A stretch of DNA of 64,000 nucleotides from an uncultured Phycisphaerales bacterium (GTDB lineage: Bacteria > Planctomycetota > Phycisphaerae > Tepidisphaerales > Tepidisphaeraceae), in NCBI GenBank assembly GCA_963758525.1, contig CAVWVQ010000001.1, positions 192,001-256,000 of the forward strand, written 5' to 3'. Below are positions 37,345-53,608 of this stretch, one piece after another; position 1 is the first letter of the stretch; every line of letters starts with the position of its first letter. The notes below the pieces were generated by a model. The model was not told the DNA's origin. It did no database searches and saw only the letters and a list, made by a program, of their open reading frames with translations. The translations under genes were made by a program, and so were the position numbers.

Positions 37345-37387
37345 AAGTCTGAACCGCATCCGTAATGAGCCACGGATTGCCGGGAGA

Positions 37388-37726
37388 TCACCCGGCTCTG
37401 CGCTGGTTCATGACTAGTCGCAACCCTTCCGCCACCATTTGGGACCGCTTGAGTTTGTGCCGTTTCGCGAACGAGTCCGCCTCCTTGAGGAGGGTGCGTT
37501 CGATGCTGACGGACATCACCTTCGCGCCGGCGCCGACGGTGGGGCGTCCGCGCACCTTCCGCTGGAAGCGCTTCCATATCTTGCGTTCCGCGGCATTGAG
37601 GGGACGGGACTCCGAAAGCGGAACTTCTCCGCGCTCAAATATCGCCAGCTCCGCAGCTTTCTCGGCCGGGGAAAGTGCCAGGAATTTTTCCACCGCATCC
37701 GGCTCGCGCCGCTTTGCCTTTTTCAT
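37388..37726 (-). CDS. Putative antitoxin with C-terminal RHH-like domain
   Basis: RGRPTVGAG...VSIERTLLKEADSFAKRHKLKRSQMVAEGL; lies downstream of a BrnT-like gene. Confidence 0.6.
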   Translation of the reverse strand: MKKAKRREPDAVEKFLALSPAEKAAELAIFERGEVPLSESRPLNAAERKIWKRFQRKVRGRPTVGAGAKVMSVSIERTLLKEADSFAKRHKLKRSQMVAEGLRLVMNQRRAG

Positions 37727-37749
37727 AAGAACGCCTTTCTTCGTTTGCA

Positions 37750-37998
37750 TCATCGCCGCCGCCGGCCGGTCATTGGCATCGCGTGAATGATGTAGTACAC
37801 CCCGTCGCGATCGATCACGTATGCCACCTGGACCCATCGATCGCCGACGCCACGGCCGATGACTTGCCATTTGTCATCCCTGACGCGCCGGGGATACGGG
37901 CGCGCGCCGCCCGCACGACGCGCTCCGCCTCCCAGACCGAACGCCGTGCCTGGCCGCATGTTCAAATTCCAGTCGTTCCAGCGGAATTCCGCTTTCAT
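37750..37998 (-). CDS. BrnT-like toxin (possibly with internal indels)
   Basis: EFRWNDWN...VIGRG...VAY...YYIIHAMPMT. Confidence 0.6.
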   Translation of the reverse strand: MKAEFRWNDWNLNMRPGTAFGLGGGARRAGGARPYPRRVRDDKWQVIGRGVGDRWVQVAYVIDRDGVYYIIHAMPMTGRRRR

Positions 37999-38095
37999 CT
38001 GATTTAATTATGGAGTTAATCCGCGTCGATGCAAACTTATTCCGACGGAAACTATTATTCTTGCGTCCACTCCGATTTTCGCATATATAATAATC

Positions 38096-38359
38096 GTGCG
38101 GCAAGCGGATGACTTCCGGTGGAACGATGCGAACTTGGAGCATGCGACGAAGCACGGCTGCACGATCGCTGAGATCGAGCATCTGCTGCTGAATATTCCG
38201 CACGGATTTCCGCGCAGGATTGATCGCCACAAACGGCTGGTCATAGGACGCGGGCAGGGCGGACGACTCATCAGGGTGATCTACCTGCTCGATCCGCCGC
38301 CCGATGCTGCTTACTACGTCCTCCACGCCATGCCGCTGACATCGCGGCGCAGGCGGTGA
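38096..38359 (+). CDS. BrnT-like toxin
   Basis: FRWNDANLEHATKHG...VIGRGQGGRLIRVIY...YVLHAMPLT. Confidence 0.7.
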   Translation: MRQADDFRWNDANLEHATKHGCTIAEIEHLLLNIPHGFPRRIDRHKRLVIGRGQGGRLIRVIYLLDPPPDAAYYVLHAMPLTSRRRR

Positions 38360-38394
38360 GGATCAACACCCGGCAATGCCGGGGGAAAGGCCAC

Positions 38395-38742
38395 ATGGCT
38401 CGCAAAACTGAAAAGGAACCAGCGACAGGCCGTGACTTCGAAGCCCTGCCGCGCGCCCAACGGGAGCGGATCATGGCGGAGCTTGACGCGGCCTCGACAG
38501 AGGAGCTGCTGGCCCGCTCCAAGCCGCTCACTCGCTCGCAAGCCGCCGCCGAGCGACGTCTGTGCGATGCGGTGAACGATCGCCGGGGACGCGGACGCCC
38601 AAAAGTCGGCAAGGGATCAAAACTTGTGGCTGTCACGCTTGAACAAGGTCTGCTGGAGGAAGTCGACCGTTTCGCCAAGCGGAAGAAGATGAAGCGTTCA
38701 GAGATGATTGCCAGCGGACTGAGACTCCTGATGGCTTCATAG
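38395..38742 (+). CDS. Putative antitoxin with RHH-like domain
   Basis: Paralog of 37388-37726 (RGRPKVGKG...FAKRKKMKRSEMIASGL). Confidence 0.65.
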   Translation: MARKTEKEPATGRDFEALPRAQRERIMAELDAASTEELLARSKPLTRSQAAAERRLCDAVNDRRGRGRPKVGKGSKLVAVTLEQGLLEEVDRFAKRKKMKRSEMIASGLRLLMAS

Positions 38743-38854: not shown

Positions 38855-38882
38855 ACTTAACATAACATGGATTATCGGACGT
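38855..38882 (-). other. dif site (XerC/XerD), left prophage junction
   Basis: Minus strand ACGTCCGATAA-TCCATG-TTATGTTAAGT has the 11-6-11 layout; E. coli dif is GGTGCGCATAA-TGTATA-TTATGTTAAAT. Confidence 0.88.
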
Positions 38883-39203
38883 GCAGAAGGGCGGCCAGAG
38901 AGGCCTATAACCGGCGGACACCGTTGATAGGTGCCCGCCAGCTAGAAGCCCACGGACTCCGGCCTGATGATAAGAGCCGGGCCGTGGAGAGCCCAAGTGT
39001 ACGTCCGAATATGCCCCGAGGCAAGAAATCATCATATCACCATTGACTGACTGCTAGCGGCTTCTAACCCGCTGCGCCAGATACCACCGGTGGGCTTCTA
39101 CTCCACCAACGATACCACCTATTGAACCAAACCCCGGCCCGACGTCAAGTGCCCTGCCCAGCAAAAATTAATCTTTTTTCGTCCCCAGCGCCGATTTGAG
39201 AGC

Positions 39204-39371
39204 GTGCCCGCCACAAAACCATTCAACCTCGACGACGCCTACAAACTCCAAAACATCTGGCGCGGCATGCGCGTCCTATGGCTCCCAATCACATTCGCTT
39301 TTTTCGTCGGCATGGGGATAACCATCCTCAAGGCACTTTTCACGCGACGCCCTCCAAGACGCCGACGATAA
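39204..39371 (+). CDS. 55-aa single-TM peptide with basic tail
   Basis: Own translation: MPATKPFNLDDAYKLQNIWRGMRVLWLPITFAFFVGMGITILKALFTRRPPRRRR. Confidence 0.45.
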   Translation: MPATKPFNLDDAYKLQNIWRGMRVLWLPITFAFFVGMGITILKALFTRRPPRRRR

Positions 39372-39444
39372 TTCTCGGATTACAACCCACCACCCCTTGA
39401 CAGCGATGCAATCGACCTGTAACGCGCCGCAGGCCTGCAGGCAG

Positions 39445-40443
39445 TCACCACAATTTTGCCCCCTTGCTGGCCAGCACCAACCGCCACGCCCGCAACCCCA
39501 CCAGAAACCCCAACCCCAACGCGCTCGACTCCCCATACAAATGCAGCGCGCCCTCCAACCCCGCCAGCTGCGACGACCACGGCGACAACTCCACCGCAGC
39601 GCGCGAGAGGCGCGGAGCCACTCCTCCCCCGGCCGAACCCCACGGCGCGATCGGCCAAGACGCCACGTCGTCCGCCACCACCGCCCCGCCCACGAACCGG
39701 TTATCGGACGCTCGACCACCCGCCGAATACATCCCGTTCAGGATGTTGGTTCCCCAACCCTCGCAATCATTTCCGGTTATCAAAACATTGCTCTCGCCCA
39801 TGATTTCAATAGCGGTCTTGGCCCACAACGACACGCCCGCATCCGGCCCGGTCTGCAATAACACATTATTGCTTATCGTAATGTTGCTGCCGAACCCCAC
39901 CCACTCGGACCCGTCCCAATATCCGCCCGTCGCGCACGAAATCCCGATGTGCGAATCAACCCCGGCCCCGTCAACATGCGGCAACCAAGAGGACATCGAA
40001 TTACCGTCGACCAAAAGATGCGTCATACCCTTTTGTAGCTCAATCCCGATCCGCGTCGCATGCGTGATCACGTTCCCTTGCACCGTCAGCCCGTCACAAG
40101 CGGCCGACAGATGCACCGGCTCGTAAACCGCATCAAACGTGTTGCCCACGATCCGGCCACCGTCCCCCGGGTAGCCATAAATACCGCTACCACTCACCCC
40201 CGAAAACGTGCAACCAACGATCGACCAGTCACGCGCCCCCGCCCCTATAAAGATTGCGTCCCCATCAATGCCACTGAAGCTCGACCCCTCCACCACCACC
40301 CCGACCGCCCCATCCGCAATCACGACCTGCACACCTGGTCCGGTCACACCCCGCAACGAATCGCCCGACCCCAGCCGCACAACCGACCCACACGCACCCG
40401 AGGCCCACAACAGCAGAAACACGCAACACCGCCGCTGAGTCAC
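39445..40443 (-). CDS. Secreted right-handed beta-helix protein with C-terminal minor-coat-like module
   Basis: Signal-like N-terminus; repeats such as IVGNTF, TVQGNVI, VDGNSM, NITISNN, ITGND; tail similar to 47560-47697. Confidence 0.7.
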   Translation of the reverse strand: MTQRRCCVFLLLWASGACGSVVRLGSGDSLRGVTGPGVQVVIADGAVGVVVEGSSFSGIDGDAIFIGAGARDWSIVGCTFSGVSGSGIYGYPGDGGRIVGNTFDAVYEPVHLSAACDGLTVQGNVITHATRIGIELQKGMTHLLVDGNSMSSWLPHVDGAGVDSHIGISCATGGYWDGSEWVGFGSNITISNNVLLQTGPDAGVSLWAKTAIEIMGESNVLITGNDCEGWGTNILNGMYSAGGRASDNRFVGGAVVADDVASWPIAPWGSAGGGVAPRLSRAAVELSPWSSQLAGLEGALHLYGESSALGLGFLVGLRAWRLVLASKGAKLW

Positions 40444-40504
40444 ACCCAGGTCAGTCACCCCAATTCCAAGCAATCCACGCATTTCTCGTCGCACTCTTTT
40501 CCCT

Positions 40505-40690
40505 CCCTGACACGGCGACCCCCCAATGACCCCATCAAACCGTCCAGCAGCTGCATGAAAGCGCCGCACGTCCCCGCCCCACAGAAGATCGGGCCCACGA
40601 ACGACCGCGAACCCCGCCGCCTCAAACCCCCGATCCATCAGGCCAATGCCCGGAAACAACGAAAGCACGACGCCGGCACACTCACACATC
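40505..40690 (-). pseudogene. N-terminal fragment of a C5 cytosine DNA methyltransferase
   Basis: Motif I VLSLFPGIG...GFEAAGF and motif IV GGSPCQ; no ENV or later motifs. Confidence 0.7.
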
Positions 40691-40861
40691 ACGCACCACC
40701 TTCCCGGAGGGTCACACCACTCCACAAACAACACCAGCGGAAACACCCACAACCGATGCCACCGTGACACGCCCGGCCGAAACTCCAACCGCCACGCGAC
40801 GCCACACGCTCGACAAAAGCGCCCCATCACGCACCACCTTTCTCTATTACTTGCCGACACC

Positions 40862-41038
40862 TCATCCTGCGTACTCCTCATGCTCCCGGATCAAACGACG
40901 GGCAGACTCCTCGATCACTTCCCGCACCGAAGCGCCCCCGCCCAACTCGCGTCGCACGTCACCGACCATCCGCGCCCACGCCTCGACCAGCAAAGTAAAG
41001 ATCTCTCCCACCTCGCACACACACTTGTCACCTGCCAT
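40862..41038 (-). CDS. 58-aa phage hypothetical protein
   Basis: Own translation MAGDKCVCEVGEIF...HEEYAG with an aagga RBS after rep. Confidence 0.4.
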   Translation of the reverse strand: MAGDKCVCEVGEIFTLLVEAWARMVGDVRRELGGGASVREVIEESARRLIREHEEYAG

Positions 41039-41052
41039 AGCGCACGTCCTTT

Positions 41053-42080
41053 CTAAATCGGCAGCCGATCGCAGTGACGCACAGGAGCCGGAGCCGGCTC
41101 ATCTGGCAGAAGCTTGCGATCGCCGTCACTCATCCTCGAATGCCCCCTTGCAAGCAGATTCTGGAGAAACATTTCCGCCCAGGCGTCACCCTGTTCTCTC
41201 TTATGCCACTCATGAACCATCGCCAGACGCCGACTTACTGTTCTCTCCAACCATCGCTGCATCGCCTCAAGCTCCTCCACCTCCTTCGGGTAGACCTTCA
41301 CCGCCGCCACGCCGAAGCCACCCCCGGATCGTCTCCCAAAACGGAGCCCGCCGGCGGCGCTCGACATGCAACGCGCGATCCTGATAGAAGTCGATCGACC
41401 CAGCCACCAACTCCCCAATCCGCCGAACCAACTCAGCGCCGGTGTACACGCCAAGCAGCTTGTCCCACACCGCGTCGGCATGAGCCTTAAAAAACCGTGC
41501 CTCATACCTCACCGCGTTAATCTCGCCATCCGATTCCGCCGCCTTGTCATACACGCACACCACCCGCCCGCCTTCACGCTCACCGAAATAAATCGTGTTC
41601 CCCTGCCGCCCCCCCTTGCCATCCCCCTCCTGGTGATGGCGGTGGCGACCCGGCCCAAACAATCGCGGCTCTGCATACCGCTCCCACAAGTCCGCCACCT
41701 CAATCACGCGCTCGAAGTCATCGAACGCACAATCCACCCGCGTCGCCTTGACCCCATGCACCCCACGCAGCCGCAACAGAAACCCCGCCATCGTCTCCGC
41801 GTCCAGCTGCGCAAGCCTGGCCGGTCACGTTCAGACAGACATCCGGCCTCGAGAACTCATCAGGGCCGCCATCCTCACACGGCGAGAAATTCAGCGTCAC
41901 ACCCGCCGTAAAGGCGTAGTGGCACCGATACCCCCGCACAACGCCGAACCGTTCCTCATGCGGCCACCCGAACACCTCTTCCACGATGTGCAGCAACGCC
42001 CCAATCTCCGTTGCCGGCGTCACAAACGTCAGCCAATCCAAACGAAGGACAGAACGACGTACACCACTTGGCGCATCCAT
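41053..42080 (-). CDS. Rolling-circle replication initiator, Rep_trans family (two frameshifts)
   Basis: RLDWLTFV, TRVDCAFDD, GNTIYFG, VYDKAAE, RYEARF spread over three frames. Confidence 0.85.
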
Positions 42081-42102
42081 GCTTACTCCGACTTGTCAAT
42101 CT

Positions 42103-42128
42103 GGACCCCCTGTTAGAGGGTGGGGTCC
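42103..42128 (-). other. Candidate double-strand origin (nick-site hairpin)
   Basis: GGACCCC-accctCTAACAG-GGGGTCC just upstream of rep; resembles Rep_trans/MOBT nick sites. Confidence 0.55.
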
Positions 42129-42329
42129 CCACAGACCACCACCCGCCCCGCCCCACAACGACAACGCCTACTCTCACAACAGCGCCCGCCGTCGACATCC
42201 ACCGCCAACCGAATGCGTCCACCGAAGACGATCACGACGACCCCGCCGCCCGGCAACGTCACCAACTCGCGAACGCACTCGAACCGAGAGACATCAAACC
42301 ACGCCTCAGAGTTTTCATTTTCCCGCCCG

Positions 42330-42700
42330 CTCGAGCCGGCCCGAGCTCCGCCAGCCGGTCCCCGCCTTTGCTCAGAAACGCATTTACACGACGTGCGCAT
42401 ATGTCCACCTCGTAAAGTGTCAGATCTGATTCAATCGCAGAGCAGGGGGCGGCCCCCCTGCAACCCCCGGAAGGCGGCTCCGCCTGAAGGAAGCCGGCAA
42501 CAGCACCGGCCACGCCGGCAGCAAGCCCACCACTCCCGCAACAGTGCTGCCGTCATGTCCGGTGCAGATGCCGGCAGAAAGTGAGCGCTGCGCACAAGGA
42601 CGCTGCGCGGCCAATCTTTTTCCACCGCTCGCTGGGACGGAAGCGAGCGGCGGAAAAAAAATGTGCGGGGGGATGTTCCTGCCCGCACTCTCACGATGCC
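42330..42700. other. Hairpin-rich intergenic region (candidate single-strand origin/packaging signal)
   Basis: Several stems (cagggggcggcccccctg; ttttttccaccgctcgct...agcgagcggcggaaaaaa) between pIV and rep. Confidence 0.45.
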
Positions 42701-42744
42701 GCCGCGCTTCGCTTACCACCCGGCCCGGCCGGAAAGGATCCACC

Positions 42745-43155
42745 ATGGCACGCCCCACCGAACTGATCGAGATAGACGGAGAAATCGAACACTTACGCCG
42801 ACGCATCAACGATCTCACGCAATCACTCGCCGTCACAGACGCAACGGCGGACCTCGCGCGAAAGGAACTCGCACGGCTCAACGCGTACATCGGCGGAGTG
42901 CACGGCGAACACGGCCGCGGTATCGGAGCGTTACAGCAGACTTGCGCGGACCTCATCAAGAGCCTCGACGCGGTCGCAACCGAAACACAAAAGCGGCTCG
43001 ACGAGATCCGCGCCAACCTCGACGAGCTCGACGACATCGTAGAGAGCCACCTCAAGGTCACGCAGAGACTCGACGCCCGCCAAAACCAAGCACACGACTG
43101 GCTAACAGCGTTAGAAGCTCGCATAGCGCAACTCGAGGCAGACGACAACCCCTGA
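42745..43155 (+). CDS. Coiled-coil phage protein on the opposite strand
   Basis: aagga RBS plus ATG; heptad pattern. Confidence 0.6.
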   Translation: MARPTELIEIDGEIEHLRRRINDLTQSLAVTDATADLARKELARLNAYIGGVHGEHGRGIGALQQTCADLIKSLDAVATETQKRLDEIRANLDELDDIVESHLKVTQRLDARQNQAHDWLTALEARIAQLEADDNP

Positions 43156-43196
43156 TGGATCAACACGCCGGCGGCGCACCCGCGCCGCCGGCACAG

Positions 43197-43433
43197 TCAC
43201 ACGTCCCCCGCCGCCGAGTCACAGCCTGGCGAGTCACACATCCCCACCACCGGCGACGGCCCACCCCCGTCCCGCACCGCACGCCACACCCGCTGCGCAT
43301 CCGCCCCGTGCGCGAACTCCACGCGCCCGCCCACGAAGGAAATCACCAAGCGGTCCGAACCCTCCCACCGCACCGACGCCACGTAGCGCAGCACAATCAC
43401 CGTACGACCCAAGACCAACCGTTCGTCCGTCAC
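43197..43433 (-). CDS. 78-aa phage hypothetical protein
   Basis: GTG start overlapping the secretin stop codon. Confidence 0.45.
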   Translation of the reverse strand: MTDERLVLGRTVIVLRYVASVRWEGSDRLVISFVGGRVEFAHGADAQRVWRAVRDGGGPSPVVGMCDSPGCDSAAGDV

Positions 43434-44902
43434 CGTCCACCTGCCTTTGCTACCGCTATCGCCGCCTCTGCCGCCGACAACCGATCCTGATCGGCCCGGT
43501 ACACGGCTTCCCACTCACGGCGAATCGCCAACACGTCACGCCCGACCTCCTCGACCGATCTATCCACCGGAGCCGGCCCCCGCCCAGGCACGTCTACCGG
43601 CCCCACCGGCTTGAGCGGCACGTCCGGCGACCCGCTCGGCCTAGGGGCCTCGCTCCCGCCGTCCGTCCGCTCCACCGGCCCGCCTGTACCCCGGCCCACG
43701 CGCGTCACGCTGGCCCACAGCTGGACGACCCGGCCGGAGCTCTCCGCGTCCGCCAACGATTGCAGCCCCAGCGTATGACTCAGCGTCCACGTGCGGCGCT
43801 CCACCTCGCCCACCAGCGCCGTCCCACCAACGTCGATCGGGGCCGAGGCGGCGAACTGGAAACCGGTCGTCGTCGGAACCCCCTGATCAGACAGCGCCAG
43901 CAACGACGTGCTGGAATAATCCACCGTCAACGCAGCACGATCCGTCCCGGCCGGACGAACAGTCAACGTCACGTCGAGGCCCACCCGATAAGGAACCAAC
44001 GTGCTTTGCGTTTGCGTCCCCTGATCATTCGTCGCCGACTGCGGCAACAGGTACGTCGTCCCATCCGACAACTTCCCCGGCACGCCGCCCGCCAGCACCA
44101 TCAGCGGCGACACCAGCGCCCGCACGTGATTGTTCTCATGGCTCGCCACAATCATGGCCTGCAACATCGCGCTTGCCACCGTCGTGACTCCACCGGTCGC
44201 GACATGGCCCAACACGCCCTGGAGCGTCACAGTCGCCGAACCGTCCCACCCCACCTTTTGCAGAAACTCGCGCGACACGTCGAACGCGTAGACGTGAATC
44301 AGCCACGCATCCGCCGGCGCCGCATCAAGCTGCGCCAACACATCGCCTATCTTCTGGTCGATTTCCACGCTGTCACCCACGACTACGATTCCGTCCTCGG
44401 TCACCGAAAGCCGCCCGGCGTCCGACAGATAGACCCGCAACAGCGCATCCAACTTATCCGGCGCGACCCGAGCACACCGACCAACGAGAACCGCGCGATC
44501 CTGCGGCCGCAATGAGCCGATAAACCACAACGACCCCAGGCGAGTCACATCCGCCCCAACGCGCCTCGCGACCGCCGCCAGCACGTCGCCCACCGGCACG
44601 CCCTGCACCCGAATATTCACTGTTGACTTATCCAACTTGGCCTCACAGATCGCCGACACGCCATCATCCACCGCCAGCCGCCCGAGGAACTGCTCGAGCG
44701 TTATGCCCTCCGCTGACAACGAAACGCGCGCCCCCGTGTCCCGTGTCTGCAGCGCCGACGCCACCGGCAGCGCTGCCGAGTACGCCGCCCGGAACTCCCG
44801 CTCCGCCCGCAACTCCGGCGCTTCTTGGCACCCAATCGCGACCGAGAGCCACATGCCGCACCACCCCGCGCCGATCGAACGTAGCAACGCCTTCAACATC
44901 AT
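43430..44902 (-). CDS. pIV/GspD-like secretin
   Basis: Lipoprotein-like signal, N0/N3-like region, secretin-like C domain (GKLSDG...VGLDVTLTVRP...GGTALVG); follows zot. Confidence 0.75.
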   Translation of the reverse strand: MMLKALLRSIGAGWCGMWLSVAIGCQEAPELRAEREFRAAYSAALPVASALQTRDTGARVSLSAEGITLEQFLGRLAVDDGVSAICEAKLDKSTVNIRVQGVPVGDVLAAVARRVGADVTRLGSLWFIGSLRPQDRAVLVGRCARVAPDKLDALLRVYLSDAGRLSVTEDGIVVVGDSVEIDQKIGDVLAQLDAAPADAWLIHVYAFDVSREFLQKVGWDGSATVTLQGVLGHVATGGVTTVASAMLQAMIVASHENNHVRALVSPLMVLAGGVPGKLSDGTTYLLPQSATNDQGTQTQSTLVPYRVGLDVTLTVRPAGTDRAALTVDYSSTSLLALSDQGVPTTTGFQFAASAPIDVGGTALVGEVERRTWTLSHTLGLQSLADAESSGRVVQLWASVTRVGRGTGGPVERTDGGSEAPRPSGSPDVPLKPVGPVDVPGRGPAPVDRSVEEVGRDVLAIRREWEAVYRADQDRLSAAEAAIAVAKAGGR

Positions 44903-46100
44903 TCACCACCTCAAGCCGCCAACCCAACGCGGCACCACTCTCCACAGTTTCGCCCACACGCAACACGGCCCCATCCTCAAACACGACCTCTTCCCGACGC
45001 ACGAGCACCAGGCGAACAACCCCCACGCGATCGTCGACCAACGCCGGCCGACCAGCCGCTGCCCCCCCCCCCACACCACCTCCACCCCGATATCGCCCCC
45101 CGCCGAGCTCAGTCACACGATGCCCACCCACGCCCTGGTCGGTCACCCCCGCAGGCCCAGCGCCTTGTGACGCCGGCAACGCGGCCCGCATATTCTTCGC
45201 AGCAAACCCCCCGACCCCCGACACGATGCCGTGCACGAGGCACCCGCCGCCGCCACAGACGAAAAACAACGGCAACCACAAAAGCCAAGACCGCATCAAC
45301 AACGCATAAAAGTGCTTCGACACGAACCAATTGATCAGGCCCGGCCAAGACCGCCGCTCATACTCCCTCTTGCGCGGCCCGCCCGCCTGCCCGCCCCCCG
45401 ACTCCGGCTTGGAGTAGCTGTCGTAGAGCTCAAAGTACCGAGGCAGAAGGTAGTGAAACTTTTCGCGCTCGCGGATGAAGCGCGCATTAACTTCGCGCCC
45501 CAGTGTCTCCCAAACCGCCGCAAGATATGTCCCGGTAAGTTTTGCGCGTAATTCATACCAATCTCCGAGCTCGATGTGAAAAAACGGGTCGGGGCGCTCA
45601 TCACTATGAACGAGCTCACGACGGAGCCCGCTCTCATTCTTGATAACGCGCGCCACCTTCATCTCGTTCTGACTTAGAAATTCTATAGTCGCCCCCTGAT
45701 GCCGAATCGTCCCCAACCATTTCTGCCACTGCGCCAGATATGACATCTTCGCCCCGACCCCCGCATACTCATGGATTTCGTCAATGGCGATATGGGTATC
45801 GGCCAACGATTGCCCCTTGAAGAAATCCCACGGGCCGCGCTGCCCCAGCCGCCACGCCGCCAACTCCTCCTCCGGGAAACGATGCAGCCGCGCCTCATAC
45901 TCATCAGCATCGCCATTCTTATTCTTCGACCACTGCGCCGCCAAGACCGCCAACGTGCGCGGCTCATACGGAAAGTTGCTCCAATGATGCAAGTTCGTTT
46001 CCGGCAGCAACTCCTCCGAGAGGAATTTCGCACACCGCAGCAAACTCTTGCCGCTGCCGGCCCGCCCCACTGTGAATTGAACCGACGTCCTGACGGCCAT
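44664..46100 (-). CDS. Zot/pI morphogenesis ATPase (3' end probably frameshifted at the G-run near 45065; real stop near 44903)
   Basis: Walker A GRAGSGKS, Walker B IAIDEIH, RHQG...SQ, LYDSY, then a TM segment. Confidence 0.88.
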   Translation of the reverse strand: MAVRTSVQFTVGRAGSGKSLLRCAKFLSEELLPETNLHHWSNFPYEPRTLAVLAAQWSKNKNGDADEYEARLHRFPEEELAAWRLGQRGPWDFFKGQSLADTHIAIDEIHEYAGVGAKMSYLAQWQKWLGTIRHQGATIEFLSQNEMKVARVIKNESGLRRELVHSDERPDPFFHIELGDWYELRAKLTGTYLAAVWETLGREVNARFIREREKFHYLLPRYFELYDSYSKPESGGGQAGGPRKREYERRSWPGLINWFVSKHFYALLMRSWLLWLPLFFVCGGGGCLVHGIVSGVGGFAAKNMRAALPASQGAGPAGVTDQGVGGHRVTELGGGRYRGGGGVGGGAAAGRPALVDDRVGVVRLVLVRREEVVFEDGAVLRVGETVESGAALGWRLEVVNDVEGVATFDRRGVVRHVALGRDWVPRSAGVAGGAGVPGGVLGSAAGGVGAADTGHGGARFVVSGGHNARAVPRAAGGG

Positions 46101-46226
46101 ACTACTCCCAATCCTGCAACGCAACCCACAACAGCGCGGCCATCCCCCACCCGCAAAGCGCCAGCTTCACCAACAAGTCGACCACCACATCGGACCGCAT
46201 CGCGACTCCCTGGACAGTCACGCCCC

Positions 46227-46490
46227 TCAGAACAGCCGCACGACCAGCTTGACGCAAAAGTACACAATGAACGACACCAGAAACCCCGCGAGGAGCTCAC
46301 AAAGCGTATCCAGTGGAAACCACAGATTGAGCAGCGAGCAGTACGTCGCAAGCGTCGCCAGCGTTGCGTTAGTCGGGATCGTCGGCAGCGGCGCGACCGC
46401 CAGTTGCAGCAACGTGTACCCGAGCTCGCACGCCCAATTCTCGAGGTACCCCAAGAAGTTCAGCAGCGCCTGCAACACGTAATAAATCAT
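46227..46490 (-). CDS. pVI-like minor coat protein
   Basis: 87 aa, hydrophobic, located between pIII and pI. Confidence 0.7.
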   Translation of the reverse strand: MIYYVLQALLNFLGYLENWACELGYTLLQLAVAPLPTIPTNATLATLATYCSLLNLWFPLDTLCELLAGFLVSFIVYFCVKLVVRLF

Positions 46491-46493
46491 GGG

Positions 46494-47521
46494 TCACCAG
46501 TCCTTCAACGTCTTCCACAACAGCCAACAAAACGACATGACCAAAAAGAATGTCGCCACCCCACGAACCGTGCCCTGCGCCCCCGACACAGCCGAACCAT
46601 AAGGCGTACCGTTCAGCGTGAACGACCCCGACTGCGGGTTAACGTCGATGCGGATTTCCGACCCGCCAAGCACACTCGGCAGATGCCAATCGACCGGCTC
46701 CAACGTCATCTGTTCAGAGAGATTCGCCGAACTGAACTGCGCGGCGAATGGAAACTTCGTGGTCAGCAACGTCTCAATCTCCCCCATGCAACTGGGCGCC
46801 GTCGTCGCGGGTTGCGTTGTCGGAGAAGGGCTGGTCGTCGTCGACGTGTCAGACGCCCCGGTAGTCGGGGCCAGCCCCGTAATCGTGATCTGCGCGTACC
46901 CCGGCGGCACCGAGTGCGACGCCCACGCATTTTGCCCTCCATTCAACGCGGTGAACAACGGCGAGAATGCCATCGTCACGTAGTAATTCGTCGCCCCGCC
47001 ACCCGACGGATACGACACGGGATCTTCCCCAAAATCCCCATTCAGCTTCGTGGCCGACGAATACGGCTCGCGCCAGTAGAACGTGTTGACATCGGTCCCC
47101 TGATCCCCAGCGTACACCTGGACCCCACCAATCCAGACCTGATACCCCGTCGCGTCGAGCTCGATCTTAAAATCCACCTCGAGCCGATCCCCGTTCGGAA
47201 CGTACGCCGACCCGCTCCAGCGCCACAAATCCAAAGCAAACGTCCCCTCATAGACGCCATTACTCCCGCTAGACCCCAACCCGCACTGGACCGTCAGCAA
47301 GTTTTGAAATGAAGGGAACCCCGAATTAACTTGGCCCGGCGGCAAGAACACGTCCGGGAACCCCGCCCGTGGGTATTGCGTCAGCGCCCCGACAGGTCCC
47401 CGTAAAAGAGGCTGCTCCCGTATTGGTACGCTACCGTCGCTTCCGCCTGAAAATCCACCGGATTGCCAGCCGCCCCACCCGCCACGACCGACAAGGCCAG
47501 CGCCACGAAGGCAACCCGCAT
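46494..47521 (-). CDS. pIII-like attachment protein (frameshift near 47385)
   Basis: Signal peptide MRVAFVALALSVVAGGAAG, Thr/Pro linker, KFPF motif, C-terminal TM anchor. Confidence 0.7.
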
Positions 47522-47559
47522 CGCACCCAGCTCAGTCACACCACCGCCCATCGCACGCC

Positions 47560-47697
47560 TCAAAAGAATTTGGACATCTTGGAGAGCATCACCAAGCGCC
47601 ACAGCTGCAACCCGACGAGGAAACCGACGCCGAGCGCTATCGCCTCACCATATAGATTGATGGCACCCATCAACTGGCTGAACTGGTCATCCGTCAT
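47560..47697 (-). CDS. 45-aa pVII/pIX-like minor coat protein
   Basis: MTDDQFSQLMGAINLYGEAIALGVGFLVGLQLWRLVMLSKMSKFF: acidic N-terminus, TM, basic C-terminus, within the structural cluster. Confidence 0.6.
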   Translation of the reverse strand: MTDDQFSQLMGAINLYGEAIALGVGFLVGLQLWRLVMLSKMSKFF

Positions 47698-47831
47698 ACG
47701 CTTCCGACCCCGAGCACTCATGCTCAACCTTGCAATGCCAGTACGCGGCCGACATGGACTTGACAATGTCACCACACATCGGACACCGCAACGTCACACC
47801 AGTACCGTAAGACACGGCGACCTCCAATCAC

Positions 47832-47872
47832 AAAAGGGGAGCGGAGCGCCCGCAACGCAGGCGCCCCGCTCA
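47832..47872 (-). terminator. Rho-independent terminator after the major coat gene
   Basis: gagcggggcgcctgcgttgcgggcgctccgctc followed by cccTTTT. Confidence 0.55.
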
Positions 47873-47887
47873 GGCGGAAAACCGGGA

Positions 47888-48130
47888 TCAGCCACCCTTG
47901 ACGCCGCGACGCGCCCACTTCCAGAACGCGGCGAAGATCACCAGCGCGATGAACACGCCGAACAAGACACCGAGAATGGTGCCCATGTTCGCCGCAGCCG
48001 CGGTGGTCAAGGAGCCAGCGTCAACGCCGAGATCAAACGGCGTGGAATCCGCGCGGGCCGTGGCCGACAGACCCACAAGAGCAGTGCACATCAACAGTGC
48101 ACCGACGATACGAGAACGGAACCGAGACAT
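47888..48130 (-). CDS. pVIII-like major coat protein
   Basis: gaggag RBS, signal peptide ending ARA, 53-aa mature protein with acidic N-terminus, TM and basic tail WKWARRGVKGG. Confidence 0.8.
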   Translation of the reverse strand: MSRFRSRIVGALLMCTALVGLSATARADSTPFDLGVDAGSLTTAAAANMGTILGVLFGVFIALVIFAAFWKWARRGVKGG

Positions 48131-48201
48131 AGAAACTCCTCATACATGACGACCACACCGGCCGTCCCTCTTACCGAGGCTTGACCCGCCAAACACCCTG
48201 G

Positions 48202-49319
48202 TCAGTCACCACCCACCATCCGACCTATCAACGCTTCCGCTTTTCCACGACACTCCACGCAGCGCGAGTTCCCCGCAATCACAGGAGCCCCACATTCCCA
48301 ACACGTAGGCGACTCCACCTCCTCCGCCTCACTCACAGCCCCCCCCGGCGAATTGTCCCCCAACTCGGAGCCCATCGACTCCAACGACTCTCCACCCGAC
48401 ACCTCCCCATACACATGATGCTCGACCGCCCCCACCACCGCGCCTTCGTTCGAGTCAATCACCATCCCCCCATCTTCGCCCGCCATCTGCCGCACGCACC
48501 GCCGACAAAAACCGCCGCCGTCACCATCGCGCTCAGCACGACTCAACCGAACCCCGCACCCGTCACACCGCCACGCATCAACCCCCGGCCCCTCCTCCAC
48601 CGCAGGCTCCGTCCCGCCTCCCACCGACCGCTTAGACCAAATCCAAAACGCGCCGAGGACCAAGAGCACAAGAACACACCGAAGATCAAACCCAGGTGAC
48701 CCCCCATCGCCGACGCCACGCTCGCCACCTTAGCCCCCACCGAACCCGAACCCGCCTTCCCCAAACCCGCCGAATCAAAGGTATAAGTGCCCGCCCCATC
48801 CCCCCCCCCACCGCCACCAGCCCCGCCACCCGAACCGCCACCACCCGAGCCACCACCGCCCGATCCGCCACCTGAACCACCGCCAGCACCGAAACCACTC
48901 CCAGGCGACGACCACAGGACCCCCGAGCCCGAAACCGTCCCATCCGTCCCCAGCGAAACGACATCGTCCACACCCGACGTCAGCACATCCGCCCCACTCA
49001 CCGCGTCCGCTTCTGCCGCAGCTAACGCCGACGAGTCACCCGCGAACCCACCGTCAAACACCACCCCACTCTCTGAATCGAAGCCCACACTCTCACGGGT
49101 CTCACCGGCGGAAACCGTATCGTAATAAAACGGCGAACCATCCACACTCACCAACTCAGTCACCCAAAACCCCTCATCATTAACGCCACCAACCAGGTTC
49201 GGAACCGAATCATCAGAAAAACTAATCGTCCGAGACTGCGCCCGACACACCCCCGGCAACACTAGAAATGCCAGCAGCCAAACCACAAGCACGGGTAGCG
49301 CACGACCAGTTGACCGCAC
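48202..49319 (-). CDS. Signal peptide + acidic domain + Gly/Ser linker + major-coat-like module + two Zn ribbons (one frameshift near 48670)
   Basis: Joining ORFs 48543-49565 and 48202-48669 restores MGGHLGLIFGVF-x-VLLVLGAFWIWSKRSVGG; four CxxC motifs follow. Confidence 0.55.
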
Positions 49320-49561
49320 CACACCACCCGCACCACCCACAGAACCAAGGTTACCGCAACAATCACGATCCGAGCACATACACACCACCTTTCGACCGCG
49401 CACACTGACGACACGACCAAGCCTCGCATCGCGCCACCCCACACACACACGCGACCCACGACACGAGGCACCATGCGACTCCACCAAAACCAGACCACCA
49501 CGACTCACAGTCGCCCCAACCCAACAACCGCAGCTATCGCACAACGCCACCAACGAACACA

Positions 49562-49720
49562 TCACCCACCCCCCACAGCCCGAGCCGCATGCCTGGCCAG
49601 CGCCCCAAACACATTCAGCGCCACCTGAATCGACACCATCAAACCCACCACAAGCGCCAGCGTCGCCACGAGCTCACCCAACACTTCCAACGGCACAAAA
49701 CCCGGATCAGGAATAGTCAT
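49562..49720 (-). CDS. 52-aa single-TM protein (minor-coat-like)
   Basis: Own translation MTIPDPGFVPLEVLGELVATLALVVGLMVSIQVALNVFGALARHAARAVGGG. Confidence 0.55.
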   Translation of the reverse strand: MTIPDPGFVPLEVLGELVATLALVVGLMVSIQVALNVFGALARHAARAVGGG

Positions 49721-49741
49721 CACTTGCCCTTAGAAAACGCC

Positions 49742-50050
49742 TTATCCACCCAACCCCAACCCCGCGCCGCCTGAATCAGCAGGTGGATCGTCAGGCCGCA
49801 CCCGAATCCCACCCCCACCCCGATCCGCAGGAGCTCCCACGCCGTCGCGACCTCGATCGTTGGCATTGTCGTAGGCATCGCGCCGAACCTTTCTCACCCC
49901 CAACAACAACCCCAAAACCGACGCGAGCATCATCGCCAACACGAACCGCCCGAACGCACAGGACGCACACGCCAGCACCATGACAACTCCCAAAACACCC
50001 AGCGGGGTCGCTAGACCCCGCCGAGCGGACAGAAACACACCGACCAGCAA
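49742..50050 (-). CDS. Small hydrophobic phage protein (boundaries uncertain)
   Basis: Two TM-like segments, position after pV. Confidence 0.4.
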   Translation of the reverse strand: MLVGVFLSARRGLATPLGVLGVVMVLACASCAFGRFVLAMMLASVLGLLLGVRKVRRDAYDNANDRGRDGVGAPADRGGGGIRVRPDDPPADSGGAGLGLGG

Positions 50051-50431
50051 CTACCTCGCAGCCTGGGCAGTCACAGGCCCAGCACCATTTCCGGGAGCCT
50101 TCACCGCCGCAGGCATGCCGCGCTTGCGGATGCCCATCGCCGTCAGGTCACATTCCGCCAACAGCGCTTCCGGCTCAAAAGACACCACACGCAAAACCGT
50201 CGTGCGGCCGTACGTCTCCTCCTCCACGTCCACGTTGACCACGATCGGACCACCGGCAGCGATCGTCCCCGCAAAATCGGTCGCGATCGCCTTCGTCGTC
50301 CGATACGTCTTGGCCTCATAGCCAAAGGCGCCCGTCTTCTTGGTCACACTGCCCATGAGCGCCCACAACTCGCTGTAGTCACGCCCGTCATCTGCCACAC
50401 GCGGGTTCGCACCCGTAACAATCAGACGCAT
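50051..50431 (-). CDS. pV-like ssDNA-binding protein
   Basis: 126 aa, beta-rich OB-like pattern (GRDYSEL...GAFGYEAKTY...VVNVDVE), first gene of the structural operon. Confidence 0.6.
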   Translation of the reverse strand: MRLIVTGANPRVADDGRDYSELWALMGSVTKKTGAFGYEAKTYRTTKAIATDFAGTIAAGGPIVVNVDVEEETYGRTTVLRVVSFEPEALLAECDLTAMGIRKRGMPAAVKAPGNGAGPVTAQAAR

Positions 50432-50583
50432 ACCGGCCTCTCTTTCTATTGCGAGCCTATCACTCGCCACCACACTCCAGACCGACAGCGCACGAGAACG
50501 CCCCGCCCGCTGGTCAGAGTTAAAAAGCGCAAAAATTGAAATAAACGTTAATGCCGCAAGAATCGGCAAAAACCCCTCTTTTT

Positions 50584-50611
50584 CAATTGCATAACATGGA
50601 TTATCGGACGT
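50584..50611 (-). other. dif-like site with degenerate XerD arm, right prophage junction
   Basis: ACGTCCGATAA-TCCATG-TTATGCAATTG. Confidence 0.85.
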
Positions 50612-51952: not shown

Positions 51953-53283
51953 TTAGTCGGTAAGCCGGTCCATGAGAAATCCCCTGATCTGGTCAATGCC
52001 GATCCGCTGCTGGCGCATCGAGTCACGTTCCCGGAGAGTGACTGTCTGATCTTCCGCAGTCTGGCCGTCCACAGTGATGCAAAAGGGCGTGCCGGCCTCG
52101 TCCTGACGGCGGTATCGCCGCCCCACCGCGCCCTTCTCATCGTAGAAAACGGGCCAGTGCTTTTGCAGATCGTGATAGATCGCCATCGCCCGCTCCGGCA
52201 TTCCCTCTTTTTTCACCAGCGGGAAGATCGCCGCTTTCATCGGCGCGAGGCGCGGCTTGAATCGCAGCACGGTTCGCATCTCCCCTTCGACCTGCTCCTC
52301 GGCATAGGCCTCGCACAAAAACGCCAGCGTCGCGCGCGTGGCCCCCGCCGCCGGCTCGATGACATGCGGAACGAATCGCTCCTTGGTTTCGTCGTCGAAG
52401 TAACTGAGGTCCTTGCCGCTGAATTTGATGTGCTGCTGCAGGTCGTAGTCGCCGCGGTGAGCGATGCCCTCCAGTTCGCCCCATCCCCAGGGGAATTTGT
52501 ATTCGATGTCGCTGGTGCCGCTGGAATAAAACGCCAGCTCGTTCTTTTCGTGCTCGCGGAGGCGCAGGTTTTCGCCGGCCAATCCCAATTGCTGATACCA
52601 GGCGAAACGCCGGTCGCGCCACTGGCGATAGGTGTCCTGGCTGTCCTGCGGCTTGCAGAAATATTCGATCTCCATCAACTCGAATTCGCGCGAGCGGAAG
52701 ATGAACTGCTTGGGCGTGATCTCGTTGCGGAAGGCCTTGCCGATCTGCGCGATGCCGAACGGCAGTTTCACGCGCGTCGAATCGCAGACGTTTCTGAAGT
52801 TGACGAACATCCCCTGCGCCGTCTCGGGCGCAGATAGACCGTCGCGGCATTCTCTTCCACCGGGCCGACAAACGTTTTGAACATCAAGTTGAACTTGCGG
52901 GCGTCGGTTAGCTGGCAGTCCGCGAACTGCCCGGGCGGCTTCGAGGGTTTTCGCGGGCAGGCGCTCTCGGCGATCTGATCGGCACGAAACCGCGCCTGGC
53001 AAGTCTTGCAATCCACCAGCGGATCGGTGAACGCCGCTTCGTGCCCGCTGGCCTGCCAGACGGTGCGGTTCATCAGAATAGCTGAGTCGAGGCCGACGAC
53101 ATCGTCGCGGGTGGTGACGTTGTCATGCCACCATGCGTTCTTGACGTTGCGCAGCAATTCGACGCCCAGGGGGCCGTAATCCCAGGTTCCGGTGAGTCCG
53201 CCGTAGATTTCGGAGCCGGGGTAGACAAAGCCGCGGCGTTTGCAAAGGGAGACGAGTTTGTCCAGCGTTCCAGCTTCAGCCAT
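51953..53283 (-). CDS. glyQS: Glycine--tRNA ligase, alpha2 type (frameshift near 52830)
   Basis: LCKRRGF, WDYGPLG, YLRPETAQG (split by the shift), [20 protein letters not shown]. Confidence 0.93.
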
Positions 53284-53608
53284 GATGAACGACCTCCGAC
53301 CCCGCGACAGCCGCGGTTGCCGCTCCGCAGCGCCTCGCGTGGCAAAATCCCGGGAGGACACCCTTCATTCCTCCCCTGGTGCGCCCGGGGAGGATTGAGG
53401 TCGGGACAGACGGTGCGGATCGCAAGATATGGCTCCGTTAGCCGTTTAGAGCCGGTTTCATTACCCCCTCTCCCGGATTGCCGGCAGAGGGAGTAGGTCG
53501 CTCGAAGTTCTGAAACGTCCTCTTGGCCCGCAGCAGGCCCAAAGGCGTATTTCACGATTTCAGCGCGCTCCGTGCGCGTCGCGGCTAAACAGGGATCTGA
53601 AGCTGCCT

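Follow-up and report, generated by a model that had tools for sequence, protein, structure and literature searches.

The DNA directly upstream of the major coat gene of an inovirus prophage raises the question of whether a filamentous phage can keep, beside its normal gene VIII, a second copy fused to other domains, and what the product of such a copy would do. The window analysed here comprises 64,000 nucleotides from an uncultured Phycisphaerales bacterium (contig CAVWVQ010000001.1, positions 192,001 to 256,000). In it, the fusion gene runs on the minus strand from a GTG start at 49319 to a stop at 48202, 71 nt before the ATG of gene VIII (48130). The first-pass annotation had described a signal peptide, an Asp/Ser-rich domain, a linker, a coat-like module and four CxxC motifs for this gene. 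All of these elements were recovered on the minus strand at the positions given below, and the observation of a coat-paralog fusion in the window is confirmed. Prophage genes and the host GlyRS gene lie on the minus strand unless stated otherwise.

Read with an X at a frame break, the fusion comprises 372 aa: a 26-aa leader, a 116-aa acidic domain, a 30-aa linker, a 20-aa spacer, a 44-aa coat module and a 136-aa tail. The leader (49242..49319) is a predicted type I signal peptide with a hydropathy peak at residue 7 and three basic residues. It was assigned to residues 1-26 from hydropathy and by eye, and the presumed cleavage would leave a mature protein starting with QSRT, as is also predicted for the homologous protein P0002. 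The acidic outer domain (residues 27-142; 48894..49241) belongs to no known family and is 68-73% identical to P0002. It contains 19 D/E versus 2 K/R and reads as coding with a codon score of +16.9. No match to this domain was obtained in Pfam or PHROG and no usable one in the Atlas; an AF2 model built from two sequences was uninformative (pLDDT 33.5). The following Gly/Ser linker (residues 143-172; 48804..48893), with glycine at 23 of 30 positions, has a shorter form in P0002. The pVIII-like module (48613..48743) consists of an amphipathic and a membrane helix followed by two basic residues, and is split by a one-base shift at 48670-48671. In frame with its 3' half is the acidic tail (48202..48612), predicted to be cytoplasmic, with eight cysteines in two C4 zinc ribbons whose CxxC motifs begin at 48567, 48507, 48303 and 48261. 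Since the fusion has two hydrophobic peaks only, in the leader and in the module, the predicted topology puts the outer domain on the outer side of the membrane and the tail on the inner side. A longer start is uncertain: an open, Cys-rich stretch of 81 codons (49320..49562) precedes the GTG in frame, and its candidate ATG at 49562 overlaps the stop of the preceding gene. No Pfam match better than E 0.1 was found for this stretch. It scores poorly on phage codon usage (-24.5), hence 49319 is the likelier start. In the called P0002 protein a Cys-rich stretch likewise precedes the leader, as judged by eye.

The fusion gene is part of a strand-skewed segment of 11.75 kb (38861..50611), bounded by two identical 22-nt direct repeats (38861-38882 and 50590-50611), which we take to be dif-like. 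No integrase was matched among the 17 ORFs scanned in the segment, and integration through the host XerCD is likely. The segment encodes a pI/Zot-like assembly ATPase (phrog_197, E 1.6e-7; 27 homologs found, many with PF05707), a pIV secretin (phrog_1012, E 1.1e-6), a rolling-circle Rep with a frameshifted gene (Rep_trans PF02486, E 3.7e-18) and, as in Inoviridae, short single-helix structural proteins including a major coat. Judged by this gene content, it is an inovirus prophage. The true gene VIII (47888..48130) was recognised by a profile of the coats of 30 relatives with the window coat itself left out (E 1e-7). A 24-sequence clade profile that included the window pVIII matched the coat of inovirus PH75 (PDB 1HGV) at E 0.0009. 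A terminator-like hairpin of 15 pairs, 12 of them G-C, lies 3' of gene VIII (47839..47871); the scan gave 5 such sites versus 4.8 expected, and only the strength and position of this one are notable. Further structural candidates are three small one-helix genes (49720-49878, 49562-49723 and 47560-47691) and a pIII-like gene (46494-47531).

Some further frames were noted in and near the prophage. An ORF of 46 aa (47687-47827), flanked by the hairpin of gene VIII on one side and by the small minor-coat-like gene on the other, contains a CxxC motif and His/Cys residues and matches Zn_ribbon_RlmA weakly (E 0.048). The 53-aa leaderless ORF at 49562-49723 gave a weak match to the pVIII profile (E 0.06-0.13) and is possibly a third coat-like module of this phage. 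On the plus strand, between pIV and rep, a 203-aa ORF (42544-43155) gave weak coiled-coil matches. Outside the left repeat, short gene pairs (37365-38742) have a toxin-antitoxin or DNA-binding look by eye.

The frame break within the module determines whether one gene is read or two. Two bases (48671-48670) stand where one codon belongs, and in a DNA alignment with gene VIII one base is missing at this point. The frequency of such breaks was estimated with 291 ORFs from 400 kb of a genome of the same genus, 127 of which had usable orthologs in the host assembly. Frameshifts were found in 24 of these 127 host genes (26 junctions or 0.168 per kb, of which 17 were -1 shifts); with the roles of the two genomes reversed, 133 genes showed 2 junctions. 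The only GlyRS found for the host (51953-53361) is split across frames by one frameshift, and the phage rep gene (41053-42080) contains two. Because so many of the host genes tested are also frameshifted, the shift in the fusion is probably, and with good confidence, an assembly error. The first-pass annotation had read one gene across the shift, and both the alignment to gene VIII and the host frameshift rate bear this out. Were the shift real, the gene would be inactivated: translation would give a 258-aa product with a garbled end, and the zinc-ribbon frame would either stay silent or be read alone from an internal GTG. The two shifts in rep are in line with such a loss, as is the prior chance of an assembly error in a 1.1-kb gene, which is only 17% at the measured rate. 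Still, we consider inactivation unlikely. The three shifts in the prophage, two in rep and one in the fusion, compare with 1.97 expected at the host rate (P(3 or more) = 0.32), the repeats at the prophage ends are identical, and the reading frames of pIII, pVI, pI and pIV are open. Even with a real shift, the ancestral gene would have been a continuous fusion. By the alignment, both halves descend from one continuous gene in either case. A programmed -1 shift was rejected, as a slippery heptamer is absent by eye. A hidden stop after the module was rejected as well; the second error that it requires, no more than about 30 nt away, has a chance of about 0.5% at the error rate found here, and the DNA aligned to the gene VIII stop is more than one base away from any stop.

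The next point concerns the origin of the module. The identity of 16/31 residues with the major coat, as counted previously, was correct, and a longer gap-free alignment with the mature pVIII of the same phage gave 19/42 (45%) with a score of 108. The maximum in 20,000 shuffles was 61. Of the hydrophobic segments in all six reading frames of the genome (5,529 in total), only pVIII itself reached 108; next came the 3' half of the fusion itself (61) and the best unrelated segment (56). Generic membrane composition, with at most 61 for shuffles and 56 for other host segments, is therefore ruled out as cause of the similarity. Compared with 37 coats, the module ranks its own pVIII first (108 versus 66), and in a tree it groups with this pVIII and the P0002 module (support 97/94). 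Over 41 codons dN is 0.55 and dS 1.45 (pooled over seven phages 0.58/1.67), with identities of 56/68/39% at the three codon positions; these values derive from short protein-guided alignments, by which the ratio is biased low. With the window pVIII left out of the profile, the fusion scored at E 0.075 only and P0002 was not matched. Thus, shuffles, genome segments, tree and constraint agree with the earlier claim of a duplicated pVIII, and the module is an old and constrained duplicate of the phage's own major coat gene. With about 346 aa in its mature form, including the 136-aa tail, versus about 50 aa for mature pVIII, the product does not have the size of a major coat protein and is classed as a pVIII-derived fusion.

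The first-pass annotation had proposed a search for intact versions, and P0002 (247 aa, 68% identical to the fusion over 140 aa) holds domain, linker and coat module together in one frame. This protein shares the predicted mature start, the Gly linker and the coat-like helix, and ends right after the coat module without a tail. Its module has diverged; it scores 58 against the window pVIII and is not matched by the clade profile. An AF2 model of P0002 alone reached a pLDDT of 39.9, with only the C-terminal helix above 60. The architecture, as judged from the protein itself, fits a gene VIII copy with an N-terminal fusion. In the searches with the outer domain P0002 was the sole homolog, and nothing was found in viral or metagenome contigs.

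The tail is a different case. Its codon score is +8.2 in the frame that continues the 3' half of the module, versus -56.0 and -85.4 in the other frames, and it matches DZR weakly (E 0.0012, below the cut-off). No credible homolog of the tail was found among 1.84 billion protein representatives. The sole match (E 4.7e-4), a repeat protein aligned over 31 residues without CxxC, was rejected as chance, and Atlas matches of at most 0.83 are leads only. Its Gly-rich start with acidic residues could act as a linker. As the tail is absent from P0002, the only homolog found for the outer domain, and no relative of it turned up in this search, it is an accessory of the window copy. By this comparison, the fusion has a conserved core made up of domain, linker and coat module, to which the tail is a lineage-specific addition.

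Related phages were examined regarding the occurrence of such paralogs. A single-sequence Zot scan of viral contigs gave no match, and no relatives were found among 50,697 annotated phage records; the loci, 75 in number, came from an alignment search with pI. The coat profile, applied to 15,486 frames, identified 36 distinct true coats. The census covers the 30 that are flanked by 1.5 kb or more on either side and omits the remaining 6. A further pVIII-like module of at least 12 bits within 5 kb was called a paralog. By this definition 15/30 distinct relatives have a paralog and 15/30 have none. Large fusions were detected in seven (L021, L022, L033, L034, L040, L041 and L055; E 9e-11 to 0.03, three of them at 0.006-0.03); an intact frame in each of them encodes a hydrophobic leader, then an outer domain of about 80-185 aa, then a coat module. 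In L033 a minor-coat-like segment stands at the start of the frame, which may combine two separate genes. Three of the seven (L021, L040 and L041) also carry tails of 44-292 aa and thus show the full layout of the window gene, while the fusions of L022, L033 and L034 end within 0-3 residues of the module. Polar-tailed paralogs (about 37-292 aa) occur in 9/30 relatives, six of them lacking a large outer domain, and three relatives have short leaderless pVIII copies. Not all paralogs are close to gene VIII; those of L036 and L040 lie 4.1 kb and 2.9 kb upstream of it. Outer domains and tails are mutually unrelated across phages (BLASTP), Pfam gave no match for any of 16 proteins, and among the phages compared only the window tail contains CxxC motifs. 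A screen of 400 genomes of the phylum added two prophages, each with one coat gene and no paralog.

The smaller paralogs fall into recurrent types. A conserved 47-aa leaderless paralog directly after gene VIII is present in prophages of the Sedimentisphaerales type (L016 5933-6085, L019 5839-5982, L020 5934-6077 and L048 589-732) and forms a supported clade (98/90). In a second recurrent architecture, a pVIII-like helix without large outer domain is followed by charged, mutually unrelated tails of 37-116 aa (L006 2634-2942, L011 5165-5584, L028 3722-4249, L034 2543-2944, L036 870-1223 and L045 3252-3713).

In the tree of coats and paralogs (57 rows and only 53 columns, with long branches) the well-supported branches force at least five changes of the paralog label. 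The paralogs of L022 and L041 pair with their own coats (100/92 and 100/98). A single origin of the large fusions was rejected: one clade for the nine large fusions gave p-AU 0.029, for a group defined by architecture and tested after the tree had been seen. The own pVIII is ranked first by 6/19 paralogs, and the others rank it 2nd to 20th. These sequence comparisons indicate that paralog fusions arose repeatedly; co-evolution with the resident coat would give the same pattern as repeated duplication.

The reading we favour, with a probability of about one half, is that the fusion, an old pVIII duplicate, would be built into the filament as a minority subunit and would display a swappable acidic domain along the particle on its Gly linker. 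According to excerpts of PMC4823517, virion proteins are located in the inner membrane and enter the filament with the help of basic residues at their C-terminus, and fusions are normally made to assemble by supplying the virion gene in a second copy. A wild-type gene VIII and a second, N-terminally fused copy with signal peptide are present in one genome in the window and in 7/30 relatives. The fusion gene precedes the terminator-like hairpin of gene VIII and hence would probably be co-transcribed with it. Its GTG start is without the clear GGAG site of gene VIII, so translation would be weaker and smaller amounts would be made. After processing by signal peptidase, the acidic domain would be periplasmic and tethered to the membrane through the coat helix, whose basic end would face the cytoplasm; the pI/pIV machine may occasionally add the fusion in place of pVIII. 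The displayed domain may serve adhesion, receptor binding or shielding. That the phage coat helix appears re-copied each time, and not just any membrane anchor, would fit a need to pack with pVIII.

The tail is the main difficulty for incorporation into the filament. The first-pass annotation had cautioned that a C-terminal extension of about 135 aa may prevent packaging, and this objection stands. The f1 lumen is lined by four lysines per pVIII (excerpt of PMC10175506), and the tail would start there, in the DNA-filled lumen at the C-terminal lysines of pVIII; 136 aa with two zinc sites are a serious obstacle to packaging. Engineered M13 p8 displays 9-residue C-terminal peptides (excerpt of PMC6100724), and for pIII, display of longer C-terminal fusions required wild-type subunits as well as a glycine linker (excerpt of PMC10175506). 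If the fusion is packaged, the tail would lower its incorporation, and would have to pass between subunits to the outside, be cut off, or do its work in the cytoplasm beforehand.

The fusion may also stay in the inner membrane and never be packaged. Its helix would dock to the pVIII pool or to pI, its domain would block related phages or tune assembly, and the zinc ribbons would bind DNA or a partner. The long predicted cytoplasmic tail with its eight cysteines would be in place there, and the polar-tailed paralogs of the relatives fit a membrane role at least as well as display. The module has two K/R in its last 12 residues versus four in its own pVIII; the range in 37 coats is 2-5, and basic residues at this place would be anticipated in membrane proteins generally. 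In the filamentous phage Pf4, a protein is known that prevents superinfection (excerpt of PMC8764522). Nevertheless, we regard this main alternative as clearly less likely than display. P0002, the closest homolog, is tail-less and ends like a coat protein, and three of the large fusions in relatives stop at the module in the same manner. Moreover, an exclusion factor could do with any membrane helix as its anchor, but it is the coat helix that was repeatedly re-used and has remained under constraint.

A filament subunit could also be confined to one end. According to excerpts of PMC10175506, Ff pIII has the same order of signal peptide, outer domain, Gly-rich linker and C-terminal membrane anchor, and the fusion might correspondingly be an extra tip or cap subunit, pVII/pIX-like, with a second receptor-binding domain. 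In contrast to pIII, the anchor is a pVIII copy and not a 150-aa pIII C domain, and the position before pVI is held by the separate pIII-like gene. The phage already has this gene and the three small one-helix genes named above, half of the relatives and the two additional prophages lack any paralog, and a C-terminal tail is equally awkward for a tip subunit. A role at one end only is thus the least likely of the alternatives considered.

The incorporation of the fusion along the filament can be compared with known systems. For Ff phages, the shaft is described as built from a single polymerised coat protein. Accessory surface proteins decorate the capsid of T4 (Hoc and Soc), and the A1 read-through protein of Q-beta is a coat protein with extension that forms a minority subunit. 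Both have icosahedral capsids, whereas the window gene is a separate duplicate whose product would be inserted through the membrane. With inovirus pVIII (nearest solved structure the coat of Thermus phage PH75, PDB 1HGV; Ff pVIII) the fusion shares the signal peptide, the amphipathic and membrane helix, a conserved Trp and, less clearly, basic C-terminal residues; it differs in its outer domain, Gly linker and tail, and in being accessory, not universal. The closest likeness in design is to engineered display vectors with two genes VIII ('type 88'). In these and in phagemid p8 display, wild-type gene VIII is accompanied by a second, fused copy behind a signal peptide (excerpt of PMC4823517). 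The window version is natural and uses a diverged paralog (45% identical), and such fusions apparently arose repeatedly.

Planctomycetes are among the inovirus hosts, with five species (PMC6813254), and inoviruses are reported in Lentisphaerae by a study whose main text never mentions 'coat' (PMC11361711). No description of natural pVIII-paralog fusions was found in the literature searched, which excluded most subscription papers, nor in the text and seven supplementary files of PMC6813254. More tentatively, and with considerable doubt, inoviruses of planctomycetes and related hosts may have invented multivalent pVIII display at least five times, with gene VIII duplicated and fused to swappable secreted domains and with mosaic filaments as result; in some of them a coat subunit would also bear a large C-terminal cargo, which in the window phage consists of two zinc ribbons. 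So far, fusions to a second copy of pVIII are known from the laboratory, where they serve as a tool. Natural versions that are intact, constrained and repeated would, if confirmed, mean that shafts can be mosaic and decorated. This would bear on the roles of inoviruses in adhesion, host range and biofilms, and would offer natural scaffolds for the display of domains of 80-185 aa. Large C-terminal cargo on a coat subunit would go beyond the short peptides reported for engineered M13 p8 (excerpt of PMC6100724).

The first-pass annotation had further held that this phage made such a fusion twice, and a second one was indeed identified. At 39445..40503, a beta-helix domain (PF13229, E 2e-12) continues into a copy of the small minor-coat-like gene (47560-47691; 58.5% identity over 41 aa). 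The small gene represents a conserved family located between pVIII and pIII in the relatives, and would be pIX-like by size and position. One relative may contain a further minor-coat fusion: a 155-aa protein of L003 (2990-3457), not matched by the profile, has a leader, a small domain and a C-terminal helix like this family by eye. Seven host loci share 43-58% identity with the beta-helix, a resemblance that suggests cargo taken from the host. In frame upstream of it, within 39445-40881, is a truncated DNA-methyltransferase-like stretch (phrog_363, E 0.017).
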